64,000 nt of DNA, taken from NCBI RefSeq assembly GCF_036568425.1, contig NZ_DATCSO010000101.1, positions 29,624-93,623 of the forward strand, read 5' to 3'. Below, in pieces: positions 3,710 to 38,617 of the stretch (position 1 is the stretch's first letter; the number at the start of each line of letters is the position of its first letter). A program made the translations under genes and the position numbers. The stretch is from Salegentibacter sp. (lineage in GTDB: Bacteria; Bacteroidota; Bacteroidia; Flavobacteriales; Flavobacteriaceae). The notes below the pieces were generated by a model. The model had not been told where the DNA came from and did not search any database. It saw only the letters and a program-made list of their open reading frames with translations.

Positions 3710-3736
3710 AAAAGGTGCATTTAATGCACCTTTTTT
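3708..3736. terminator. Bidirectional rho-independent terminator between convergent genes
   Basis: AAAAAAGGTGCAT-TTA-ATGCACCTTTTTT. The perfect stem is flanked by A6 and T6. The loop TTA is the stop codon of the minus-strand gene. Confidence 0.75.
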
Positions 3737-4170
3737 ATTTCCATCTTCTTGTCGTTGAAACTGAAGCTGTCTCCGGCTTTTTTGTCTTTCATTTCCTGAT
3801 AAATAGGAGCTTCAGTTGAAATTGAATAAACCTTGCTACCGTCCTTAAGCAGAAGCTCTCCAACCGGTACAGCTACAAAATATAAATCTGTATTTGTTTC
3901 TACTACACTACCAAAATTTACGGTTTCACTGTAATGCTCCAGATCTAAATTAGCCAGTTTTTCTTTCATTTCCTGGGCTTGGCTCAGGTATTTGGCGTAT
4001 TTTTCAAAATCTCCCAGTAACTGACCTTTATTATCCTCGTCGTAATCGGTTTTTACATCATTCGCATCCATGGACTCTTTAATCATATCCATTTCCTTTT
4101 CATATTTTTCAATTCTCCGGTCTACAGCTTCAAGGCTATTGTAGTAAATTTCTTTTTTATTAATCGCCAT
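3721..4170 (-). CDS. Conserved hypothetical protein (coiled-coil N-terminus; C-terminal half loosely GreA/B C-domain-like)
   Basis: 149-aa ORF with a clean start and a terminator. Charged heptad-like N-terminus and beta-rich C-terminus (VNFGSVVETNTDLYFVAVPVGELLL). The domain call is only an impression. Confidence 0.55.
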   Translation of the reverse strand: MAINKKEIYYNSLEAVDRRIEKYEKEMDMIKESMDANDVKTDYDEDNKGQLLGDFEKYAKYLSQAQEMKEKLANLDLEHYSETVNFGSVVETNTDLYFVAVPVGELLLKDGSKVYSISTEAPIYQEMKDKKAGDSFSFNDKKMEIKKVH

Positions 4171-7667: not shown

Positions 7668-8078
7668 ATGGAACAAGAGATAGCTGTAACAGTAGATATA
7701 GTTGCATTTTGCAATTCGAATAATAAAATAAATGTATTATTGATCAAACGAAAAAATGAACCTTTTAAGGGGCAATGGGCCATTCCCGGTGGTTTTGTTG
7801 ATGAAGATGAAGATCTAGAAGATGCCGCTAAACGGGAATTCACTGAAGAAACCGGTATAAAAGTGAAAACTATAGAGCAGGTAAGGGCTTTTGGAGCCCC
7901 AGGACGAGACCCGCGGGGGCGCATCATTTCCATCGCTTTTTTAAGTTGGATAAATTGTGACGAAAATCCTTTAGCCGGAGATGATGCCGCAGAGGCTAAA
8001 TGGTTTACCCTTGACCAGCTTCCTGATCTGGCCTTTGACCATGCCGAAATTATTAATGCAGCTGAGATTTATTTGTAG
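7668..8078 (+). CDS. NUDIX hydrolase
   Basis: Nudix box GGFVDEDEDLEDAAKREFTEETGI. Lies 5 nt downstream of the ALDH stop. Confidence 0.85.
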   Translation: MEQEIAVTVDIVAFCNSNNKINVLLIKRKNEPFKGQWAIPGGFVDEDEDLEDAAKREFTEETGIKVKTIEQVRAFGAPGRDPRGRIISIAFLSWINCDENPLAGDDAAEAKWFTLDQLPDLAFDHAEIINAAEIYL

Positions 8079-8207
8079 TACGAATCCAAAATTAATTGGT
8101 GCTAAAATTTATTTTTCTTTATTTTCCTGAGACATAATATGGAATTTCGTAAAAATGAAAGAAGGTTCTTTCAGTCAGGATTATGTTTTTTACCTTTAAA
8201 ATAAAAA

Positions 8208-8603
8208 ATGAGATTTCATACCAGGAAATGGGTAAAACCTCAGGATTTAAATCCAAATGGAACCCTGTTTGGGGGTAGGGTTTTAGAATGGATCGATGAA
8301 GAATGTGCTCTTTACAGCATCATTCAGTTGGAAAATCCGAGAACAGTAACCAAATATATTAGCGAGATCAATTTTCAAAATTCTGCTCATCAGGGCGATA
8401 TTGTTGAAATAGGAATTGATGTCTTGAAATTTGGGAGTACTTCTTTGAGTTTACGATGCGAGGTTAGGAATAAAATGACCCGCGCAGTTATTATTACCAT
8501 TGAAAAAATAATTATGGTCACTCTTGGTAAAGATGGCAAACCAATGAAACATGGAAAAACAAAGATTGAATTTGTAAAAGACAGGCTTAATCAAAATGAT
8601 TAG
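8208..8603 (+). CDS. Acyl-CoA thioesterase (hotdog fold, YciA-like)
   Basis: 131 aa. NGTLFGGRVLEWIDEE is typical of hotdog thioesterases. Confidence 0.7.
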   Translation: MRFHTRKWVKPQDLNPNGTLFGGRVLEWIDEECALYSIIQLENPRTVTKYISEINFQNSAHQGDIVEIGIDVLKFGSTSLSLRCEVRNKMTRAVIITIEKIIMVTLGKDGKPMKHGKTKIEFVKDRLNQND

Positions 8604-9697
8604 TTTTCTTCTTTAGCTTCTTTGGCTTTTTCAACATTTTCTTCTTCCTCTTCCTTTATTTGCTCTTTCGCCCTTTTTAATTGATTTTCATTAGGGGCCT
8701 CAGCTTCTTGTTCTTTAGCCCTGTCCGGTTCAAGACTTAGGCTCACATAAAAAGGAAAATGATCAGAGCCGGTGTTTTCCCCGGTATTAATATCTTTTAA
8801 TCTAAATTCTTCCGAAGTTAAAATATGGTCTAGTGGCCACCTAAGAAGAAGGTTGTTAGCATTAAAAGTGTTGTAAAATCCGCGGCCAACCCTAACATCC
8901 AGAAGTCTTCCTACACTCTGGAAAAGGGAGGTGGTTTCAGACCAGGCGACATCGTTAAAATCTCCAATTACAATTACCGGAAGTTCTCGTTCCAGGCTCA
9001 TTTTTGCGATTTTCATCATTTCAGCATCGCGATCGGAGGAACTTGGATTATGTTGTGGCATTGGTGGAGTAGGATGAATGGCATAGAGTTGTACCAAATT
9101 CCCTTCGGGCAATTTTATTCGGGTGTGGATTGAAGGAATACTATCGTGTACAAGATATCGTACCTGTGGGTCGATCAGTTCAAACTTTGAATACAACAGC
9201 ATCCCGTAGGTGTTTTGTAAAGGAACTTCTACATTATAACGATAAGACTCCTCCAGATTTTCAGAAATTTCATTTTTCCATTTTGTATTGGTTTCAGTAA
9301 AAACCATAACGTCAGGATTTATTCGATCTATTTCGCTTATTAATTTTTCGTATTTTTTATTCTCTTGAAGAACATTAGCAGTTAAGATTTTTAATTGAGG
9401 AGCCTCAGCCTTTGTGCTTTCTCCAATTTCATAAGCTGAAAAAGGGGTGTATGGATAAATTTTTCCAAACTGAAAGATAAAACACGCCAGAAGTATTATC
9501 ATAAAAATATAATCCTGTCGCAATTTTATATCGAAGCGAATGAAATAGGCGGCAATGGCTGTTAAGGTTAAAAGGCTTAATTGTATATGCGGAAAGTCGA
9601 ATACCCGAATCCACCAGAAATCGGCTGCGATTAAAGGAATTAAGGTTAGGAGCACGGCGATGGCCCCAAATATCTGAAGAAAAGTTTTTAATTTCAT
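8600..9697 (-). CDS. Endonuclease/exonuclease/phosphatase (EEP) family membrane protein
   Basis: N-terminal TM helices followed by an EEP domain ending in GSDHFPF. The C-terminal tail is K/E-rich. Confidence 0.7.
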   Translation of the reverse strand: MKLKTFLQIFGAIAVLLTLIPLIAADFWWIRVFDFPHIQLSLLTLTAIAAYFIRFDIKLRQDYIFMIILLACFIFQFGKIYPYTPFSAYEIGESTKAEAPQLKILTANVLQENKKYEKLISEIDRINPDVMVFTETNTKWKNEISENLEESYRYNVEVPLQNTYGMLLYSKFELIDPQVRYLVHDSIPSIHTRIKLPEGNLVQLYAIHPTPPMPQHNPSSSDRDAEMMKIAKMSLERELPVIVIGDFNDVAWSETTSLFQSVGRLLDVRVGRGFYNTFNANNLLLRWPLDHILTSEEFRLKDINTGENTGSDHFPFYVSLSLEPDRAKEQEAEAPNENQLKRAKEQIKEEEEENVEKAKEAKEEN

Positions 9698-28714: not shown

Positions 28715-31030
28715 TTAATTGTTCTTTTTTCCACCAAACAGCCTTTTAAAGAATCCCTTTTTTTCTTTCTTTTCTTCTTGTTTCTGTGTGCGCTTCTTTT
28801 CTTCCTCGTTCCTATCCTTTTTACCAAAGAGTCGCTTAAAGAAACCATCACGTTTTTCGGGTTCACAATCCAGCATTGCAATTACATCAGCTGAAACCGG
28901 GAAGCGCGCCTGGGTTATCTCTTTAAAATGAGGTTCAGCATTCATTTTTTGCATCAGTTTTCCGAAAACCGGCAGGGCAGAATTCGCGCCCTGGCCTATA
29001 TAGGTATTTCTGAATCCAATACGATGATCGTCGCTACCTACCCAGGTTACGGTAACCAGGTTTGGGGTCATCCCTACAAACCAACCGTCTTTATTGTCTT
29101 GAGTTGTTCCGGTTTTCCCCGCGATGTCGTTTCTTAAACCATACGTGCTCCTAAGCCTGTATGCAGTGCCTTCATTAACCGTAGCTTTCATCATTTCTAC
29201 CATAACCTGTCGGTTGGTTTCTGAAAGAGCAGGAGTGGTGCCGTTTTTTGGTTTAAATTCGGTCAGGAGATTTCCGTTACCATCTTCAATTTTGGTGATA
29301 TAGAAAGGCTCGCTGTACCTACCTCCATTTGCGAAAGGCGTGAAGGCAGTTGTAAGTTCGGCCAGGCTTAGTGAAGCCGTGCCAAGGGCAATTGAAGGCA
29401 CCGATGGGATATCAGACTCGATTCCCATTCTCCTGGCCTGCTTGATAACATTTTCAATCCCGGCCTCCATTAAAACCTTTACGGCAATGGTATTCATAGA
29501 TTTGCTAAGGGCCTCCTTCATATTATAATTCATATGGGGATCGTCCTCAACACTACCGGAGTTAGAGGGTGTCCAACCACCTTTATAAGTTACTTCCCGG
29601 GCAGAGAAGTAGGTGCAGGGTTCTATGCCGTTTTCCAGGGCAGCTGAATATACTATCGGCTTAAAAGTGGAGCCTACCTGGCGTCTACTCTGTGAAACGT
29701 GATCGTATTGGAAATAACGGTAGTCAATCCCTCCAACCCAGGCCTGGACAGCTCCGGTGCTCGGTTCTACTGCCAGCATTCCCGAATTTAGAAACTTCAG
29801 GTAGTGCTCAATACTGTCTTTTACACTAGCAGTTTTGGTAACAGTACCATTGTATTCAAAAAGCTCCATTGGCCGGGTTTTATCCAACTCATCCATAATT
29901 TGATCTTCAGACAAACCTCTGTTCTTAAGGTTTTTATATGGTTTGGAGCTCTTTATGGCATCCTGTAGAATTTTAGGATTCCGTTTCCATGGAGTAGCTT
30001 TACCATAGGATTTTTCATGTTGCTCCTGTAGGGCTGCCATATGTTCCTGCATAGCCTCCTCGGCCAACTGCTGCATTCTGTAATTTAAGGTGGTGTGAAC
30101 AATAAGTCCGTCGCGGTAAATATTATATTTTTTCCCATCTTTATTTTTTAAAGTATCCAGGATCTTGCTTACATCCTTACGAACCTGTTCTCTAAAATAC
30201 GGGGCCAGGCCTTTGTCGTGGCCGTAATTCTTATAATTCAGGACCAAATCTGCAGCCTGGACTTCTCTTTCTCTTTCTTCTGAAATAAAACCATACTTTT
30301 CCATCTGGGAAAGCACTACATTTCGCCTTTCTTTACTGCGCTCAGGGAAGATACGGGGATTGTAATAATGTGAAGCTTTAAGCATTCCCACCAATACTGC
30401 TGATTCTTCAATATTTAATTCTGAAGTATGTTTTCCGAAGAACTTCATCGAGGCACTCTCTATTCCGAAGGTATTATCGCTAAAGGGAACGGTATTGAAA
30501 TAAAGCCTGATAATTTCTTTTTTATTATAAGTTTCTTCCAGTCTTTTTGCAATCACAACCTCCTGGAACTTATTCACAACAATTCCCAGGAAACCATAAT
30601 CTTTTCTGCCGTAGATATTTTTGGCGAGCTGAAGCGTGATGGTGCTTCCACCTCCCGCAGATTCATCCTGGAGTAAAATAGATTTGAAAAACACCCGCAT
30701 AAGGCTTCGGGAATCAATACCACTATGGTTATAAAAACGAACATCTTCAGTGGCGATAAGGGCATCTATTAGATGCTGTGGAAATTCGTTATATTTTACC
30801 GGTTGCCTGTCGTGTATATAAAATTTCCCAATTAATTCACCTTCCGAAGAAAGCACTTGGGTGGCACGGCTTTGTTGAAGTTCACTTAATTCTTTAGAGG
30901 AGGGAAGTTTGCCCCAGGCACCAAAATAGATACTTGCCAAAAACAGGATTCCAAGTGCAAATAAACTCCCTATTATAATTAACCCCAACTTAAGTTTGGG
31001 TGATTTTTTAATCTTTAATAACAATGACAT
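28715..31030 (-). CDS. Bifunctional class A penicillin-binding protein (PBP1A-type glycosyltransferase/transpeptidase)
   Basis: GT51 motif ATEDVRFYNHSGID. Transpeptidase motifs STFKP, SKSMN and KTGTT. N-terminal TM anchor. Confidence 0.92.
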   Translation of the reverse strand: MSLLLKIKKSPKLKLGLIIIGSLFALGILFLASIYFGAWGKLPSSKELSELQQSRATQVLSSEGELIGKFYIHDRQPVKYNEFPQHLIDALIATEDVRFYNHSGIDSRSLMRVFFKSILLQDESAGGGSTITLQLAKNIYGRKDYGFLGIVVNKFQEVVIAKRLEETYNKKEIIRLYFNTVPFSDNTFGIESASMKFFGKHTSELNIEESAVLVGMLKASHYYNPRIFPERSKERRNVVLSQMEKYGFISEEREREVQAADLVLNYKNYGHDKGLAPYFREQVRKDVSKILDTLKNKDGKKYNIYRDGLIVHTTLNYRMQQLAEEAMQEHMAALQEQHEKSYGKATPWKRNPKILQDAIKSSKPYKNLKNRGLSEDQIMDELDKTRPMELFEYNGTVTKTASVKDSIEHYLKFLNSGMLAVEPSTGAVQAWVGGIDYRYFQYDHVSQSRRQVGSTFKPIVYSAALENGIEPCTYFSAREVTYKGGWTPSNSGSVEDDPHMNYNMKEALSKSMNTIAVKVLMEAGIENVIKQARRMGIESDIPSVPSIALGTASLSLAELTTAFTPFANGGRYSEPFYITKIEDGNGNLLTEFKPKNGTTPALSETNRQVMVEMMKATVNEGTAYRLRSTYGLRNDIAGKTGTTQDNKDGWFVGMTPNLVTVTWVGSDDHRIGFRNTYIGQGANSALPVFGKLMQKMNAEPHFKEITQARFPVSADVIAMLDCEPEKRDGFFKRLFGKKDRNEEEKKRTQKQEEKKEKKGFFKRLFGGKKNN

Positions 31031-31115
31031 AGGTTAAATTAACTGCTACAAATTAACGAAGACTTGAAATAAGTAGTTCACTATTTATGCCAACTTTAAG
31101 GTTTATTTTAGGATA

Positions 31116-31151
31116 GTAAAAAAGCCGGTCACAAATTAAATTGTGCCGGCT
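31116..31151 (-). terminator. Rho-independent terminator closing the micro-ORF cassette
   Basis: The minus strand reads AGCCGGCACAA-TTTAAT-TTGTGACCGGCT (one bulged base) followed by TTTTTT. Confidence 0.7.
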
Positions 31152-31182
31152 AATTAAAGGCAAAGTTCATAAGGCTTGGTTT

Positions 31183-31326
31183 TTATGGTTCTATGACAAA
31201 GCTTTTGTGATGCTTCCAGGCTGATGTAAATAGATTGTTTTTAATTACACGGAAATGTTTCCGGCGTTTTAAGAACCCTGCCTTGCGTTGTCCTATTTCC
31301 ATCATCATGTTCTCCAGGGTTTTCAT
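31183..31326 (-). CDS. Micro-ORF C, 47-aa basic peptide (unknown family)
   Basis: MKTLENMMMEIGQRKAGFLKRRKHFRVIKNNLFTSAWKHHKSFVIEP. It is preceded by the same 27-nt spacer type as ORF B. It shares R[RK]A(G)FL[NK] and SxW with ORFs A and B. Confidence 0.45.
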   Translation of the reverse strand: MKTLENMMMEIGQRKAGFLKRRKHFRVIKNNLFTSAWKHHKSFVIEP

Positions 31327-31353
31327 AATCTAAAAATTTAAAGGGTTGAATTA

Positions 31354-31449
31354 TTAACTTAAATAACGTCTTTGGTTGTCCCAGCTGCTACGGCTGTTTG
31401 TTTTCTCGGTGTTTAAAAATGCTCTGCGATTGACTTTTGAAGGTTTCAT
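31354..31449 (-). CDS. Micro-ORF B, 31-aa basic peptide (paralog of A)
   Basis: MKPSKVNRRAFLNTEKTNSRSSWDNQRRYLS. Across codons 8-31 it differs from A in 5 codons, 4 of them synonymous. Confidence 0.6.
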   Translation of the reverse strand: MKPSKVNRRAFLNTEKTNSRSSWDNQRRYLS

Positions 31450-31475
31450 AATTTAAAATTTTAATGGTTATACTA

Positions 31476-31571
31476 TTAACTTAAATAACGCCTTTGGTTG
31501 TCCCAGTTGCTACGGCTATTTGTTTTCTCTGTGTTTAAAAATGCTCTTCTGGTGGTTTTAAAAGTTTTCAT
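31476..31571 (-). CDS. Micro-ORF A, 31-aa basic peptide (unknown family)
   Basis: MKTFKTTRRAFLNTEKTNSRSNWDNQRRYLS. See ORF B for the synonymous-substitution argument. Confidence 0.6.
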   Translation of the reverse strand: MKTFKTTRRAFLNTEKTNSRSNWDNQRRYLS

Positions 31572-31717
31572 CTGTTTAAGTTTTATTGTTTACCTAATAG
31601 ACTTTTTATTTTTTAATTTGTTACAGTACTATGTATAAAATAGTACTAAATTAACATGATATTAACTATTATACTGGTTTTCAGCAGGAAAGGATAGTGA
31701 GGGGGAGTGGTGTTAAA

Positions 31718-31749
31718 TAAAAAATGCGAACCAAAGAGTTCGCATTTTT
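31718..31749. terminator. Bidirectional rho-independent terminator after the dipeptidase gene
   Basis: AAAAAATGCGAAC-CAAAGA-GTTCGCATTTTT, with symmetric A and T runs. Confidence 0.8.
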
Positions 31750-31773: not shown

Positions 31774-33060
31774 TTAACTACTCTGAATATCTTCAGCGAC
31801 AGCTTGTACCTCATCCAAGACTCTAAGCAGATTTTCACCCCATAACTTAGCGATTTCTTCTTCGGTATAGCCTCTTTTAACAAGTTCTGCCGTTACATTA
31901 AGGGTTTCAGAGGCATCCTGCCAGCCATCAATTCCTCCGCCACCATCAAAATCGGAGCTAATGCCTACATGGTCTATACCTATTAGATCTACCATATAAT
32001 CTATATGGTCCACAAAATCACTAACGTCTACCGGTTGTATCTCCTCTTTAAGCTTTGCCACCTCAGCTTCAGCAGCAGTTCTGATCTTTTGAAATTCGGC
32101 ATAATAAATATCTCTGTCTTCCTGGGGCAGGTTTCTAATGCTGTCCCGCTCCAAAATAGAAAAATTCATTTCTTCAGCTTTCTTCTCGTATACTTTGTTT
32201 CTTGCTTCAGAAAAAGCTTTGTGTTTTTCGGTATTTACATATCCACTGAAAGCAACAGTTTGAACAACTCCGCCATGTTCTTTAAACAATAATAATAATT
32301 CGTCATCTAAATTCCTGCTGTGGTCACATAATTCCCTGGCCGAGGAATGAGAAGCTATAAGAGGTGCTTTGGAAAGTTCGAACATTTGTTTAATAGATTC
32401 CTTTGAGGGATGAGAAACGTCTATCATCATTCCGTATTTATTCATTTCAGCGATAACCTCTTTTCCCAGATCGCTTAGTCCGTTGTGAAGCCAAACATCA
32501 TTTTCTTCCCCTGTATTAGAATCGCAAAGCTGGCTGTGACCCTGGTGGGAAAGAGACATATAGCGGGCACCCAAATCATAGAATTTCTTAACGTTGCCAA
32601 TATTTTTACCAATTGGATATCCGTTTTCAACTCCAATCATCGCTACTTTTTTACCTGAGGCATGTATTTTTCTAACCTCATCTGATGTAGTTGCGAGCCC
32701 AACCTTATCAGGAGCGAGTTCATTTACCAGTTTATGGATAGCAATAAATTTTTGCATGGCATTATTATAGGCTGCCTTAAAGCCTTCTTCATTCATATCA
32801 TCCTGGCCGGTATAAACAATAAGCCATGCAACATCCAGGCCGCCGGCTTCCATTTTTGGAAGGTTCACCTGGGTGTCCAGGTTCATGCTGTAGTTGCTTT
32901 CATCGGTAAAATTATTGATGTTGATATCGGCATGGGTATCAATTGTGATAATTTTATCCTGAATTGTTTTGGCTTTATCCAGCGTCTCCTGGTTGTAGTT
33001 TTGAGCTTGTAAACTAAAGGCACCTAACAGCAGTATTAAAGAGGTTTTAAAAATTTTCAT
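31774..33060 (-). CDS. Membrane dipeptidase (peptidase family M19), secreted
   Basis: Signal peptide MKIFKTSLILLLGAFSLQAQ. M19 motifs IDTHADI, HQGHS, IDVSHPS and SSDFDGGGG. Confidence 0.85.
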   Translation of the reverse strand: MKIFKTSLILLLGAFSLQAQNYNQETLDKAKTIQDKIITIDTHADININNFTDESNYSMNLDTQVNLPKMEAGGLDVAWLIVYTGQDDMNEEGFKAAYNNAMQKFIAIHKLVNELAPDKVGLATTSDEVRKIHASGKKVAMIGVENGYPIGKNIGNVKKFYDLGARYMSLSHQGHSQLCDSNTGEENDVWLHNGLSDLGKEVIAEMNKYGMMIDVSHPSKESIKQMFELSKAPLIASHSSARELCDHSRNLDDELLLLFKEHGGVVQTVAFSGYVNTEKHKAFSEARNKVYEKKAEEMNFSILERDSIRNLPQEDRDIYYAEFQKIRTAAEAEVAKLKEEIQPVDVSDFVDHIDYMVDLIGIDHVGISSDFDGGGGIDGWQDASETLNVTAELVKRGYTEEEIAKLWGENLLRVLDEVQAVAEDIQSS

Positions 33061-33222
33061 GATAGCATTTTATTAATAATTGTTGAAAATAGGAATATTT
33101 TTTCAATAGGCATCATATCTACCTTGCTTCATTATGAATAATAAGCATTTATGGGCTTTTTATGTGGGAATTAATTTTTTATAGCCTGTAAATAATTTTG
33201 TTTTTTCATTAAGATTTTCAAC

Positions 33223-33230
33223 TACATTTG
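33223..33230 (+). promoter_or_regulatory. Candidate -7 element TAnnTTTG (TACATTTG) for the ATP-grasp operon
   Basis: Exact match, 20 nt upstream of ATG 33251. A second exact match (TAATTTTG) is at 33193-33200. Confidence 0.4.
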
Positions 33231-33250
33231 GTGTTCTTTTAGTCTAATTA

Positions 33251-34702
33251 ATGGAAAAATTTATTGTAGTTGATCAACCTGAAACCTGGAATTTTGAACT
33301 GAAGAATGTTCAAATAATTTCAGCGCAGGCTTATCTAACCAATCCCGAATATGCCAAAATTAAAAAGGCCCGAATATTTAATCTGTGTAAGGATTATTCT
33401 TATCAATCCCGGGGATATTATGTTTCGCTTTTAGCTGAAGCCCGTGGGCATTTGGCAATTCCTACCGTAACAAATCTAGTGGACCTTCGTGAGCCTAAAC
33501 TTGTGAAAATCGTTTCTGAAGAATTTGATGACCTCATTCAAAAAAGTCTGAAGAATATTAAAAATCAGGAATTCACGCTCAGTATTTACTTTGGTCAAAA
33601 TGTTGCTCAAAAATATCGGGAATTAAGTGCAATGTTTCACCGCCATTTTCAAATACCATTTCTACGGGTGAAATTCAATTACACTACCAAATGGAATATA
33701 AAGAGTATAAAAGCAATTTCTGAAGCTGAAATTCCCACAGAACATAAGGAAAATATGCGGGATTTTGCCGGGCAGTATTTTTCTAAAAAACGATATGATA
33801 CTCCGCGCCCGGCAAATGCCGATTATGACCTGGCAATCCTGGTTAACCCGGAAGATCCTGCGCCCCCAAGCAATACAAAGGCGATCAAGAAATTCATTGA
33901 GGTTGGGGAGAAAATGGGTTTTTATGTTGAAGTGGTATTCCCAAAAGATCTTTCCCGCCTGTCTGCTTTTGATGCATTATTCATAAGGCAAAGTACCGAG
34001 GTCAACAACGATGCCTATGCTTTCGCCCGAAAAGCCCAACAGGAAGAACTCGCAATTATAGATTATCCTGAGGCGATCTTAAAATGCTGTAATAAAGTAT
34101 TTATGGCCGAAGCGCTTCAAAATGCCGGCATTCCTACACCAAAAACGGTGATCGTGCACAAGGAAAATAAAAACACAGTACTTGAAATCACAGGCCTTCC
34201 GGTGGTTTTGAAGTCTCCGGATTCCACTTTTTCTTTCGGTGTAAAAAAAGCAAGCACGAAAAAAGAATACCAGGACATGGTGAATGCAATGCTTAAAAAA
34301 TCTGACCTCGTTATCGCACAGGAGTTTCTCCCTTCAGAATATGACTGGCGTATTGGTGTTTTAGATAATAAGGTGTTTTTTGCCTGTCGCTATTATATGG
34401 CGAAAGACCATTGGCAGATATACAATTGGGACGCTGCCGAGAAGGACAATCAGGACGGGAATGCAGATAGCTTACCTATAGAAGATATTCCGAAAAAAGT
34501 AAAGGAAGCTGCCTTGAAATCGGCTAGAATTATGGGAAAAGGATTATACGGAATAGACGTGAAAGAGATTAATGGCCGGGCTTTGGTTATAGAAATAAAT
34601 GACAACCCGAATATAGATGCCGGAGTGGAAGATGCCCATTATGGCGATCAGGTTTATGTTGAAATTCTGGGTGCTTTGAAAAGCAGACTTGAAAAAAAAT
34701 AA
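33251..34702 (+). CDS. RimK-like ATP-grasp ligase with a long N-terminal (RLAN-type) domain
   Basis: 483 aa. The C-terminal ~280 aa have ATP-grasp features (VVLKSPDSTFSFGV, VIAQEFLPSEYDWRIGVL, GLYGIDVKEINGRALVIEINDNPN). The N-terminal ~200 aa match what I recall as the RimK-like ATP-grasp N-terminal domain. Confidence 0.75.
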   Translation: MEKFIVVDQPETWNFELKNVQIISAQAYLTNPEYAKIKKARIFNLCKDYSYQSRGYYVSLLAEARGHLAIPTVTNLVDLREPKLVKIVSEEFDDLIQKSLKNIKNQEFTLSIYFGQNVAQKYRELSAMFHRHFQIPFLRVKFNYTTKWNIKSIKAISEAEIPTEHKENMRDFAGQYFSKKRYDTPRPANADYDLAILVNPEDPAPPSNTKAIKKFIEVGEKMGFYVEVVFPKDLSRLSAFDALFIRQSTEVNNDAYAFARKAQQEELAIIDYPEAILKCCNKVFMAEALQNAGIPTPKTVIVHKENKNTVLEITGLPVVLKSPDSTFSFGVKKASTKKEYQDMVNAMLKKSDLVIAQEFLPSEYDWRIGVLDNKVFFACRYYMAKDHWQIYNWDAAEKDNQDGNADSLPIEDIPKKVKEAALKSARIMGKGLYGIDVKEINGRALVIEINDNPNIDAGVEDAHYGDQVYVEILGALKSRLEKK

Positions 34703-34704
34703 TC

Positions 34705-35925
34705 ATGAAGTATCATCTTTTTGAAGTTTTTGGCATTGAGTTGGAATATATGCTGGTGCGAAAGCGCAGTCTTAAGGTAAACCCGATCGTAGATCAACTG
34801 CTTACTAAAAAAAACGGGAGTTTGACCGCTGATATTGATAATGGTCAAATTGAATGGAGCAACGAGCTGGTCGCGCATGTGCTGGAATTAAAAACCAATG
34901 GCCCAACGGCAAAGCTGAAAGATCTGGATAAGCTTTTTGCTGAAAATATTCAGGAGATCAATTCCCTGCTCGAAGAGTTTGATACGCTGCTCCTGCCATC
35001 GGCTTCTCACCCGTTAATGCAGCCAGAAAGAGAAACTCAACTGTGGAAACATAGTTATAGCAAGGTCTACGCCCTATACAACCGTATTTTTGATTGTAGT
35101 GGTCACGGGTGGAGCAATGTGCAAAGCATGCATATTAATCTACCATTTTACAATGATGCTGAATTTGAAAGACTACATGCAGCCGTTAGAATCCTGCTAC
35201 CTATTATTCCGGGCTTAAGTGCGAGTTCCCCAATTTTTGAAGGAAAAACAACAGGTTTTAAGGATTCCCGCCTGGAAGTTTATAAAACCAACCAGAAAGA
35301 GATCCCACAAATGACGGGAAAAGTTATTCCGGAGCAGGTGTTCAGTAAAACCGATTATTATCAGCGAATCTTTAAACCTATTAATGCCGCTATAAAACCC
35401 TTCGATACTGAAAATATCCTGGATCATCACTTTCTCAATTCAAGGGGAGCCATTGCACGATTTGACAGAAGTGCCGTTGAAATTCGTGTAATAGATATTC
35501 AGGAGTGCCCGGCGGCCGATATCGCCATAGCAGTTATAATTATTGAAAGCCTGAAATTGCTGATAAGTGGAGAGTGGATCGCTCTGGAAGAACTTAAGAA
35601 ATGGCATGAGGATGATCTTTTCGAAATTTTTAATTCGGTTATTCGGGATGCTGAAGAAACCAAAATTAAGAATGGATATTTTTTAGCGATCTTCGGAATT
35701 AAAGAAGACACCAGTGTTAAGCAAATTTGGAAAAAACTATACGAAAGAGTTCAATCCCAAATTTCAACAAAACATCAGCATACCATTGAATATATATTAA
35801 TGAACGGTAGCCTTTCAACCCGGATTCTCCATAAACTCGAAGGGAATTTTTCAGAAGAAAAGATAAAGAAGGTATATGCTGAGCTTGGAGTATGCCTGGC
35901 TAAGAATCAATTATTTAAAGTGTGA
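34705..35925 (+). CDS. Glutamate-cysteine-ligase family 2 (GCS2) carboxylate-amine ligase
   Basis: The N-terminus FGIELEYMLV is the hallmark beta-strand of GCS2/YbdK-type ligases. 406 aa. Starts 2 nt after the upstream stop. Confidence 0.72.
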   Translation: MKYHLFEVFGIELEYMLVRKRSLKVNPIVDQLLTKKNGSLTADIDNGQIEWSNELVAHVLELKTNGPTAKLKDLDKLFAENIQEINSLLEEFDTLLLPSASHPLMQPERETQLWKHSYSKVYALYNRIFDCSGHGWSNVQSMHINLPFYNDAEFERLHAAVRILLPIIPGLSASSPIFEGKTTGFKDSRLEVYKTNQKEIPQMTGKVIPEQVFSKTDYYQRIFKPINAAIKPFDTENILDHHFLNSRGAIARFDRSAVEIRVIDIQECPAADIAIAVIIIESLKLLISGEWIALEELKKWHEDDLFEIFNSVIRDAEETKIKNGYFLAIFGIKEDTSVKQIWKKLYERVQSQISTKHQHTIEYILMNGSLSTRILHKLEGNFSEEKIKKVYAELGVCLAKNQLFKV

Positions 35926-36605
35926 TGTTAATTTTAAGCTGTGAACACGCCTCTAATGAAATCCCGAAAAAATATCAGTACTTATTTTCTCAAAACCGGG
36001 ATATTCTTAACAGCCATCGCGGTTACGATCCCGGGGCCAAGGACTTATTTGAGTATCTTAAAGTTTTAGGGGATTTTTATAGTAATCTTAATATTAGCAG
36101 ATTGCTGGTGGAGGTTAACCGTTCGATCCCTCATCCTCATTTATTTTCCGAATTTACCAAAGGACTTCCTTCAGTAGAAAAAAATAAAATAATCGCCTCC
36201 TGGTATAAGCCATACAGGGCTGAAGTGGAAGACCGAATTAATAAGTTCATTGATAAAGGGGAGAAGGTGATGCATCTTTCAGTTCATACTTTTACGCCAA
36301 TTCTAAACGGCGAAACCCGGAATGCAGATATAGGTCTGCTTTATGACCCATCCAGTAAAGTGGAAAAAGTATTTTGTAAAGATTTAAGATCAAACTTAAA
36401 AGAAGCAAATCCCGATTTAAAAATAAGGTTTAATTATCCTTACTTAGGAAAGGCTGATGGATTTACAAGCTATTTGAGAAAGAAATTACCGGAGGATTAT
36501 GCTGGGATAGAATTGGAGATAAATCAGAGCTTTGTTAAGCATAACAGGATGAACGAAAATTTGAAAGAAGCCGTCTTTAACGCCCTTCAAAAAACTTTAA
36601 AATAA
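35922..36605 (+). CDS. N-formylglutamate amidohydrolase family protein
   Basis: LILSCEHASNEIP and LSVHTFTP resemble FGase family motifs. GTG 35922 or ATG 35925 overlaps the upstream TGA (GTGATG). Confidence 0.7.
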   Translation: MMLILSCEHASNEIPKKYQYLFSQNRDILNSHRGYDPGAKDLFEYLKVLGDFYSNLNISRLLVEVNRSIPHPHLFSEFTKGLPSVEKNKIIASWYKPYRAEVEDRINKFIDKGEKVMHLSVHTFTPILNGETRNADIGLLYDPSSKVEKVFCKDLRSNLKEANPDLKIRFNYPYLGKADGFTSYLRKKLPEDYAGIELEINQSFVKHNRMNENLKEAVFNALQKTLK

Positions 36606-37665: not shown

Positions 37666-38617
37666 ATGAAAAAAGGGCAATCTAATTCCAGAAGGAATTT
37701 CATTCAAAGTACCAACCTTGTTACTGCCGGAATAACAATTATTCCCCGACATGTTCGTCCGGTTTGGCCACAGGGTATACCATGGCCGCAGCAGTCAAAT
37801 GCCACAGTACCTTCAGAACTCGATTGGAATTTGTGGCTGGGAACTGCGCCATATAAGGATTATGTAGATGGTCTTGTTCCTTTTAACTGGCGGGGCTGGT
37901 GGGATTATGGTACCGGAGCCCTTGGCGATATGGGGTGCCATTTAATTGAAGCCCCCTACAGAGTGCTTAATTTGAATTATCCCAAAGATGTACAAAGCAG
38001 CGTAGAGAGTGTTTATGTAGATGAATTTAAACGCGGCTATTTTCCTGAAAGTTGCCCGCCTTCCAGTCATGTTACCATGACCTTTCTAAAAACCGACAAA
38101 ACAGATTCTGATGTCACCCTACACTGGATGGATGGTGGTATAAAACCGATGCGTCCTCTAGAATTAGGACCTAACGAGACTTTTGGCGATGCAGGTAATG
38201 GTACTTTTTATAGGAACCAAAGGTAAAATGATGTGTGGTAGTCATGGTGAGAACCCGCAGTTACTGCCAACTTCTAAAACCAATGAAGTTAGTATTCCTA
38301 AAAAATATGAGAGGGTAGAAGGTGGTTCCAATGGTCATTATGGTCAATGTGTTGAAGCCGCTATTGCCGGGGATGGTAAAAAAGAACTTAGTGCGCCTTT
38401 CGAAATTTCAGGCCCACTAACCGAAAGCCTTCTCATCGCAAATCTTTCCATTAGAGGTATTGATGTGCGTAAGGAGAAGAAACGGGGAAATGTCGACAAA
38501 TACTTTGAATATCCCGGCAAAGATGTGAAAATGCTTTGGGATGCAGAAAATATGAAGGTGACCAATCTGGATGAGGTCAACCAGATCGTGAAACGGGACT
38601 ACCGTACTGATTGGTAA
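37666..38617 (+). pseudogene. Decayed Gfo/Idh/MocA-family (Tat-exported) oxidoreductase: Rossmann domain deleted plus a +1 frameshift
   Basis: The Tat signal MKKGQSNSRRNFIQS...IIPRHV is joined directly to the C-terminal half (RPVWPQG...LDWNLWLG...GALGDMGCH). The frame breaks at the T5 run 38205-38209. Removing one T restores ...GDAGNGTFIGTKGKMMCGSHGENPQLLP... Confidence 0.75.

Follow-up and report, generated by a model that had tools for sequence, protein, structure and literature searches.

A predicted tandem operon of small basic proteins directly upstream of a class A penicillin-binding protein gene in Salegentibacter and related Flavobacteriaceae

Between an M19 dipeptidase gene and the gene for a class A penicillin-binding protein (PBP1A), the genome of Salegentibacter sp. 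carries three very short open reading frames (ORFs) in tandem on the minus strand, and the question raised by this locus is whether they are genes and, if they are, what their products do next to a gene for peptidoglycan synthesis. The locus lies in a 64-kb stretch of contig NZ_DATCSO010000101.1 (64,000 nt, referred to below as the window), whose PBP1A shares 92% identity with its S. flavus counterpart and 91% with that of S. sediminis. A first-pass annotation of the window had described the three ORFs, A, B and C, as a stand-alone cassette encoding very basic peptides of a family that it did not recognise, of which A and B were tandem duplicates under apparent purifying selection. This observation was confirmed and its core interpretation is supported by the comparison of genomes reported here, which establishes A, B and C as genuine genes predicted to encode lineage-specific small, hydrophilic and strongly basic proteins. 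They appear to form a tandem operon of variable copy number, with a promoter region and a terminator of its own, immediately 5' of the class A PBP gene.

The positions, strand and translations of all three ORFs are as they had been given, the spacers between the ORFs match the quoted sequences, and the hairpin with its T-run, the inverted repeat AGTACTA-N9-TAGTACT and the terminator of the M19 dipeptidase gene were all found in the window (Table 1). The tandem duplication that gave rise to A and B spans 122 nt, and its two units are identical at 101 of the 122 bases. The codon table that had been drawn up for the pair is exact: codons 3, 4, 6 and 7 differ non-synonymously, codons 8 (AGA/CGC), 14, 18 and 27 differ synonymously, and codon 22 is an N/S exchange.

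The first-pass annotation had proposed a family search and a check of synteny, and these were run on a sample of 80 loci around PBP1A orthologues, with one genome per species. From the first matches, a hidden Markov model (HMM) was built; run against six-frame translations of all 80 loci, it identified 105 complete micro-ORFs of 28-45 amino acids (aa), at 2-6 per locus, all of which (105/105) run intact from ATG to stop, are on the PBP1A strand and lie immediately 5' of PBP1A. The array is present in 28 of the 29 related loci (L001-L029, from Salegentibacter, Christiangramia/Gramella, Zunongwangia and related metagenome-assembled genomes), the exception being L005, and no copy was found in the 51 other loci, from Salinimicrobium, Mesonia, Aquimarina, Tamlana and other genera. 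Within the window, the HMM found no further match beyond the array.

Two subtypes can be recognised in the family. The short (S) subtype, of about 29-37 aa, has the core [RK][RK]xF[LM]N ... RRR[FY] and the overall pattern M.T....TK[NS]R[KR]SFMNTEAN......SRRRF[AIV], the Salegentibacter form of which is MKT.K..RRAFLNTEKTNSRSSWDNQRRYLS. The long (L) subtype, of about 39-47 aa, has an additional N-terminal MxTLxxIIQxFG segment and the pattern M[RKT]TL[DE]SIIQDFG..KEGGLTHRRPFLNLK......W[YH]..R..[YF]A, and it is always the final member of an array. ORF C had been taken for an older paralogue of A and B, and this was borne out by a profile-profile comparison (hhalign), in which C aligned collinearly with the family profile over 44 residues (96.3% probability, E = 1.8e-9), which makes it a divergent member of the L subtype.

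In the databases, the family is almost invisible. Among 5.8 billion proteins, a profile search recovered no more than 21 matches, all of them unnamed or named 'hypothetical protein', nearly all of the 44-aa L type, and from Christiangramia and Salegentibacter; the S type was represented in this collection by just two annotated proteins, P0019 and P0020. The concatenated A and B sequences gave no match in a word-indexed protein search, and when 1.84 billion cluster representatives were searched exhaustively with HMMER, only family members of 41-47 aa and three spurious long proteins were recovered. Candidates rejected as chance likenesses to RRAFLNTEK were P0022 and P0029, which contain 8-18 near-identical repeats and look like translated tandem DNA repeats, and P0040, an FG-GAP/VCBS-type repeat protein whose repeat has GATRAFLNTAD. 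Scanning metagenomes with the L-type alignment added two more loci, both from the same clade. Searches of Pfam, NCBIfam and PDB with the single peptides and with the family profile found no relative, the weak matches to PPR and uL22m being due to chance; the motif strings of the family were not found in the literature searched, and no curated family covers the peptides. The family is confined to the Salegentibacter/Christiangramia/Zunongwangia clade of the Flavobacteriaceae and, being without relatives elsewhere, might conceivably have arisen de novo 5' of PBP1A.

The association with PBP1A was also seen in six of six family members that came from the database-wide searches and had not been ascertained through PBP1A, each of which is located directly 5' of a Transgly/Transpeptidase gene. 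On the other side of the array, the neighbour is the M19 dipeptidase gene in the Salegentibacter group to which the window belongs; in most other genomes, including that of C. forsetii KT0803, a divergent NHL-repeat gene takes this place. Since the upstream neighbour varies between genomes, it is the PBP1A gene with which the array travels. Salinimicrobium and Salegentibacter sp. oa5 (L005; CP051246.1, about 3727-4003) show the same synteny but lack the array. The latter is the only array-less locus with a PBP1A identity of at least 70%, and 277 nt separate its dipeptidase stop from its PBP1A start; in this lineage, the array was either lost or never gained. Micro-ORFs seen 5' of PBP1A in Aquimarina and Tamlana were rejected as alternative frames of the large upstream gene, the intergenic distance there being only 3-50 nt.

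The number of copies appears to be in flux. Among the S copies of one genome, identity is 83%, whereas between genomes it is 53%, and this closer similarity within genomes indicates ongoing duplication and homogenisation. In L028, a decayed L-type copy with a premature stop, MALSNLIEAFGPNWHGDLTHRTA*, was observed between the last L-type ORF and the terminator (about 3715-3790). This copy shows that unselected copies degrade fast, and it suggests birth-and-death turnover; older remnants are probably contained in the long gaps of L012, L016 and L018.

Several lines of evidence indicate that the micro-ORFs are translated and that selection acts on the peptides. When the ORFs of the window were compared with close orthologues, the ratio of non-synonymous to synonymous differences (pN/pS) was 0.06-0.19 for A (against L003, L010 and L004), 0.16-0.31 for B, and 0.10-0.37 for C (four orthologues). 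Between genomes, pN/pS in the annotated frame was 0.58 for the S subtype and 0.46 for the L subtype, compared with 1.18 and 0.74 (S) and 1.02 and 1.05 (L) in the two shifted sense frames, and with 0.75-1.22 (S) and 0.62-1.10 (L) in the three antisense frames. Antisense frames are for the most part closed; the one that also appears in the ORF track was open in just 40 of the 69 S copies and 7 of the 33 L copies. In codon-threaded alignments, the mean column entropy at codon positions 1, 2 and 3 was 0.97, 1.01 and 1.26 for S and 0.94, 0.86 and 1.36 for L, and in the conserved F, L, N, T, P and H columns, positions 1 and 2 are nearly fixed while position 3 is free. The start regions are also conserved in composition: among 85 distinct start regions, A is found at -3 in 88% and at -11, -12 and -13 in 96, 98 and 85%, respectively, and there is essentially no G from -20 to -7. 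It has been reported that Flavobacterium johnsoniae does not use Shine-Dalgarno sequences and that adenines at particular positions are measured positive determinants of initiation (PMC6847099), and the start contexts of the micro-ORFs agree with these determinants. With regard to RNA, predicted folding of the transcript was no better than that of shuffled sequences (z = +0.48), and the best Rfam match at permissive E-values, CyaR, reached 25.9 bits against a cut-off of 47 and covered only the terminator hairpin. The proposal that selection acts on the peptide and not on a repeated RNA or DNA element therefore holds, with in-frame values of 0.06-0.37 for the ORFs of the window against 0.74-1.18 in the shifted sense frames and 0.62-1.22 in the antisense frames of the family. 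Frame-specific pN/pS, the wobble signature, the start contexts and the lack of RNA structure together indicate that the micro-ORFs are translated genes under purifying selection on the protein, and we regard a translated, conserved operon as very probable.

Table 1. Positions in the window of the micro-ORF array, its predicted regulatory elements and the flanking genes
Feature	Position	Strand	Description	Basis
Micro-ORF A	31476..31571	-	31 aa, short (S) subtype, MKTFKTTRRAFLNTEKTNSRSNWDNQRRYLS, net charge +6	HMM E = 9e-14
Micro-ORF B	31354..31449	-	31 aa, S subtype, tandem duplicate of A, net charge +6	HMM E = 2e-14
Micro-ORF C	31183..31326	-	47 aa, divergent long (L) subtype member, net charge +8	hhalign
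Tandem duplication, units	31455..31576 and 31333..31454		122 nt each	
Conserved element 5' of promoter	31626..31667	-	AGTTAA..ATGTTAA..AGTAC-N13-GTAC; holds the inverted repeat	
Inverted repeat	31625..31647		AGTACTA-N9-TAGTACT	
Promoter-like element, extracytoplasmic function (ECF) sigma type	31598..31625	-	-35 TGTAAC 31625-31620, 16-nt T-rich spacer, -10 AGTCTA 31603-31598	
Six-codon mini-ORF MNFAFN	31150..31170	-	TAG stop (31152-31150) is the first three bases of the terminator stem	
Predicted intrinsic terminator of micro-ORF operon	31118..31151	-	stem AGCCGGCACAA / TTGTGACCGGCT, then T6	free energy (dG) -15.3 kcal/mol
Near-consensus housekeeping -7 box	31049..31056	-	TTAATTTG, about 20 nt 5' of PBP1A start	consensus TAnnTTTG (PMC7366714)
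Class A PBP (PBP1A)	28715..31030	-	flanks the array on its 3' side	
M19 dipeptidase	31774..33060	-	flanks the array on its 5' side	
Terminator of M19 dipeptidase gene	31720..31749			

How the array is expressed can be approached from the conserved sequences around it. The 5' region has the form AGTTAA-N5-ATGTTAA-N3-AGTAC-N13-GTAC, followed directly by TGTAAC, a variable T-rich spacer of 16 nt and (C/A)GTCTATTA. The inverted repeat noted previously is the AGTAC/GTACT pair of the upstream element, which is near-invariant across Salegentibacter and Christiangramia, is also found in the distant loci L085, L088 and L092, and is possibly an activator or repressor site. Downstream of it, GTAAC-N16-(C/A)GTC occurs once in each of the 27 readable array loci (27/27) and in none of the array-less loci, and it has a single match within the window. 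Its boxes are conserved while the 16-nt spacer is variable, and in most other genera the -10 box is CGTCTA. In promoters of the ECF sigma factors M, X and W of B. subtilis, the -35 box contains AAC, the -10 box contains CGTC and the spacer includes a T-tract (PMC5758882); Bacteroidota have about 22 ECF sigma factors per genome (PMC7826278). The element of the array fits the ECF pattern of a -35 box with AAC, a CGT(C) -10 box and a spacer of 14-17 nt, although this consensus is that of Bacillus and not of the host phylum. The housekeeping box of the Bacteroidota is TAnnTTTG (PMC7366714). An exact copy had been reported as missing from the 85 nt between the terminator and PBP1A, and none was found when the whole region from the dipeptidase stop to the PBP1A start was scanned, an absence that favours the ECF reading. 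Judged from the promoter sequence, ECF-type control of the array is reasonably likely.

Two further observations concern these sequences. In the 0.9 Mb of fetched loci, the only TGTAAC-N16-CGTC outside an array is at 8016-8060 (+) in L017 (Zunongwangia sp. H14), where the likeness extends further (CGTCTTTTTAATAGAGAC) and the site lies about 90 nt 5' of an ORF (8145-8696) for a 183-aa protein with a signal peptide. It is possible that the same sigma regulon includes this site as a second member; by chance, a search of this size is also expected to give one match. In addition, the motif TTAATTTGT(A/G)(A/G)C occurs three times around the array, at 31128-31140 in the terminator, at 31042-31056 just 5' of PBP1A, and, as the reverse complement, at 31612-31627 over the -35 box. 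These inverted repeats of 13-15 nt are not conserved outside Salegentibacter and are therefore probably a chance product of AT-rich DNA.

At the 3' end, the description of the cassette as a unit with its own terminator was substantiated, in that a terminator is kept in 28 of the 28 PBP1A-ascertained array loci with a readable gap between array and PBP1A. In 26 of these, it is a homologous TAGCCGG...CCGGCTA stem with a T-run, and in L020 and L023 a different hairpin with a T-run occupies the same place; overall, dG ranges from -10.7 to -24 kcal/mol. The homologous hairpin with its T-run ends about 80-100 nt 5' of PBP1A. The distant loci, which are outside the PBP1A-ascertained set, also have a terminator hairpin 3' of the array. 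Downstream of the terminator, a -7 block (TTTATTTG in most loci, TTAATTTG in the window) is found in the same place in all loci, and this block is probably the promoter of PBP1A itself. The combination of a terminator and a separate -7 box suggests that the array is its own transcription unit and that PBP1A most likely has its own promoter.

The first-pass annotation did not see the six-codon mini-ORF that runs into this terminator (Table 1). The arrangement ATG-N15-TAG(CCGG), with the ATG exactly 18 nt 5' of the TAG, is present in 24 of 27 aligned loci, and an A-run is located at -13 to -10 of the start. In-frame variants of 7 codons occur in the distant loci L085 and L087, and one of 10 codons in L021. 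The interior codons vary without pattern: in place of the MNFAFN of the window, other loci have MKTIST, MTLHKT, MYLPIS, MKRDLE and further variants. The start of the mini-ORF lies 11-22 nt past the stop of the last micro-ORF in many loci (12 nt in the window). Conservation of a start, a length and a stop but not of the peptide is the signature of a regulatory ORF, whose translation matters and whose product does not. No competing antiterminator helix was found in the predicted fold, and no regulatory codons were found in the mini-ORF. The suggestion that A, B or C might be leader peptides that control read-through into PBP1A thus has a better candidate, as a leader-peptide role fits the mini-ORF better than any of the three.

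With respect to the proteins themselves, the family has a mean net charge of +5.1 and a mean grand average of hydropathy (GRAVY) of -1.04, and Cys, at 0.5% of residues, is not conserved. There is no transmembrane or strongly hydrophobic segment, in line with the first judgement that these are not type I toxins. AlphaFold models of A and of one L-type member were of low confidence (pLDDT 61-65), with only a weak C-terminal helix, and were left out of fold searching. On these properties and on the promoter, the best explanation overall is probably a stress-induced operon of small polycationic cytoplasmic proteins. An alternative sigma factor of the ECF type would transcribe the operon, which would then probably be induced by envelope or other stress. 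The products would be disordered cytoplasmic polycations that bind polyanions; by analogy with arginine-rich micro-proteins, the most plausible targets would be RNA or the ribosome, a tentative assignment with a low probability of being right, and repeated duplication of the genes would serve dosage. As for PBP1A, a ribosome decoding or terminating on the mini-ORF would cover the 5' arm of the terminator and block the hairpin, and if translation keeps pace with transcription, some transcripts from the stress promoter would read through into PBP1A. The short gap after the last micro-ORF stop would permit re-initiation at the mini-ORF. Such gating of read-through by the mini-ORF is possible, but we would place it somewhat below an even chance. 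A broader proposal, which we consider doubtful, is a clade-specific envelope-stress module in which ECF-driven micro-proteins would act on cell-wall synthesis or export (PBP1A or its partners, Tat, or the translation of envelope proteins), with PBP1A itself boosted through the ribosome-opened terminator.

A number of observations weigh against the stress-operon explanation or parts of it. Among the suitably sized genes of the window, there is no ECF sigma gene; the genus of the window has AGTC and not CGTC as its -10 box; and the strongly conserved 40 nt 5' of the -35 box could point to some other mode of control. L020, L023, L088 and L092 lack the mini-ORF, which has ATA for ATG in L018 and no A at -3 of its start. 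To our knowledge, transcription-translation coupling has not been shown in Bacteroidota. Finally, the argument that the peptides may bind RNA or the ribosome is drawn wholly from composition and analogy.

It is also conceivable that the micro-ORFs encode leader or arrest peptides, in which the conserved [RK][RK]xF[LM]N, W and RRR[FY] would act in the exit tunnel, stall the ribosome on a signal and control read-through into PBP1A, the free peptides being functionless. The strict same-strand linkage 5' of PBP1A, a length of 28-47 aa that approximates that of the exit tunnel, the location of the best-conserved C-terminal residues immediately before the stop codon, and the terminator between the array and PBP1A would all suit such peptides. 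However, a sensor needs one copy, whereas the arrays contain 2-6 homogenised tandem copies, each with a strong start context, as would be expected if product dosage mattered. Moreover, only the last ORF is near the terminator, where the mini-ORF of variable sequence holds the overlapping position, and PBP1A retains a conserved promoter-like box 3' of the terminator. On balance, arrest peptides are unlikely.

Tandem copies in which conserved N- and C-terminal parts enclose a variable middle are a typical feature of precursors of ribosomally synthesized and post-translationally modified peptides (RiPPs), and the peptides might accordingly be substrates of a modifying system that are exported as signals or antimicrobials. 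Candidate enzymes are encoded 0.2-5.5 kb away (31774-36605), namely a RimK-like/RLAN ATP-grasp, a GCS2 ligase, an N-formylglutamate amidohydrolase and the M19 peptidase, and they are syntenic in the clade. Nevertheless, the enzyme cluster and its synteny occur without the array in Salinimicrobium and L005, an unrelated NHL-repeat gene lies between the array and the cluster in most genomes, and the operon contains no transporter, protease or maturase. Nor were the cross-linkable residues of a RiPP or graspetide core found (Thr/Ser paired with Asp/Glu, Lys paired with Glu, or Cys), as the variable region of the L type usually has no acidic residue and Cys is not conserved. The predicted promoter, too, is of the stress-sigma type, and RiPP-like precursors are an improbable identity for these peptides.

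The resemblance of RRAFL to a twin-arginine translocation (Tat) motif had been noticed at the outset, together with the lack of an h-region (the hydrophobic stretch of a signal peptide). If the resemblance were functional, the peptides would mimic the n-region of a Tat signal, bind the Tat receptor or a signal-peptide chaperone, and modulate the export of envelope proteins in stress. T-R-R-A-F-L-N and T-H-R-R-P-F-L-N-L-K do resemble S/T-R-R-x-F-L-K, and a Tat substrate encoded in the same window, at 37666, starts MKKGQSNSRRNFIQST. The resemblance goes no further, however: A and B have T/N-R-R-A-F-L-N and the L type has H-R-R-P-F-L-N, but many S copies have RK, SR or KK instead of RR, and Asn follows F[LM] in at least 90% of copies, where the consensus has Lys. 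No h-region or mature domain is present. The highest 12-residue Kyte-Doolittle window averages -0.09 across the family, with a maximum of 1.38, and the ORFs end 15-22 residues past the motif. No NCBIfam Tat-signal model matched at E-values up to 10, and we consider Tat mimicry highly improbable. A non-coding tandem-repeat RNA or DNA element with incidental ORFs, to which the intergenic position of the repeat and the absence of annotation for short copies in almost all genomes might point, is scarcely credible in view of the frame-specific purifying selection, the 105 intact frames with conserved start contexts, and the lack of a structure signal or an Rfam family.

Some features of the neighbourhood may be mentioned in their own right. 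The enzyme genes opposite the M19 dipeptidase gene form a divergent cluster at 33251-36605 (+) that encodes a RimK-like ATP-grasp with an RLAN domain, a carboxylate-amine ligase of the GCS2 family and an N-formylglutamate amidohydrolase; it is syntenic across Christiangramia, Salegentibacter and related metagenomic contigs and looks like a peptide or amide-ligase pathway. In the 186 aa encoded by the ORF at 37666-38226 (+), a classical Tat signal (MKKGQSNSRRNFIQSTNLVTAGITIIP) is accompanied by no more than a fragment of a GFO/IDH/MocA oxidoreductase domain; the ORF is followed by an overlapping 144-aa ORF in another frame (38183-38617, +), so that the pair looks like a frameshifted gene or a sequencing error. 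In PBP1A, the C-terminal tail (28715-28870; also in L017) is rich in lysine and glutamate and contains two copies of GFFKRLFG, a basic amphipathic repeat kept between genera, with a loose likeness to GFLKRRKHF of ORF C.

Small proteins are systematically missed in Bacteroidota, and the S-type genes described here are almost never annotated. The family is validated by comparative genomics and has an unusually complete predicted regulatory anatomy, with a promoter, optimal start sites, a terminator and a mini-ORF, and its invariant genomic partner is the gene for the main peptidoglycan synthase. It offers a handle on three subjects about which little is known in this phylum: ECF-sigma promoters and regulons, translation-coupled termination without Shine-Dalgarno initiation, and the way in which micro-protein genes arise and rapidly duplicate. 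Christiangramia forsetii KT0803 (L083), a marine model that has been studied genetically and physiologically, has a minimal array of two genes, which makes experiments practical.

Among known systems, the closest analogy in protein character is with the DUF1127 proteins of Alpha- and Gammaproteobacteria, such as CcaF1 of Rhodobacter sphaeroides and the duf1127 products of S. meliloti, which are likewise very small, arginine-rich and hydrophilic and have several paralogues per genome. DUF1127 proteins are stress-responsive, one member has been reported to bind RNA, and one of the genes is under the control of an attenuator that depends on an upstream ORF (uORF) (PMC12218461). However, there is no sequence relationship, as A, B and C matched no Pfam family, including PF06568, at E-values up to 10, and the genes described here are in another phylum, are strictly tandem, are locked 5' of PBP1A and have an ECF-like promoter. 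Tests of membership in the DUF1127, RiPP-precursor and type I toxin families were negative, as was that for a Tat signal with respect to h-region and cargo. Tat signal peptides show a partial likeness in the n-region-like [ST]-x-R-R-x-F-L, where many copies have RK or KK, but h-region, c-region and cargo have no counterpart here. For the promoter, the envelope-stress promoters of B. subtilis sigma M, X and W offer the nearest comparison, with a shared -35 box ending in AAC (TGTAAC), CGTC -10 box, 16-nt T-tract spacer and nearby cell-wall gene; the array differs in its phylum, in the additional conserved block of 40 nt upstream and in the AGTC -10 box of the window. Leader-ORF attenuators, such as that of E. 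coli pyrBI and those with tnaC and other uORFs (PMC12218461), resemble the predicted mini-ORF in that a short ORF overlaps the 5' arm of a terminator upstream of a gene on the same strand. In contrast to these, the mini-ORF, as known here from sequence, is at the end of a protein-coding operon and is not a simple leader, has no regulatory codons or antiterminator hairpin, is absent in some lineages and precedes a PBP1A gene that appears to have an additional promoter of its own. Compared with these systems, what appears to be new is a micro-protein family in a new arrangement, in which a putative ECF-type promoter, a battery of tandem micro-ORFs and a terminator capped by a mini-ORF are joined to a class A PBP gene.

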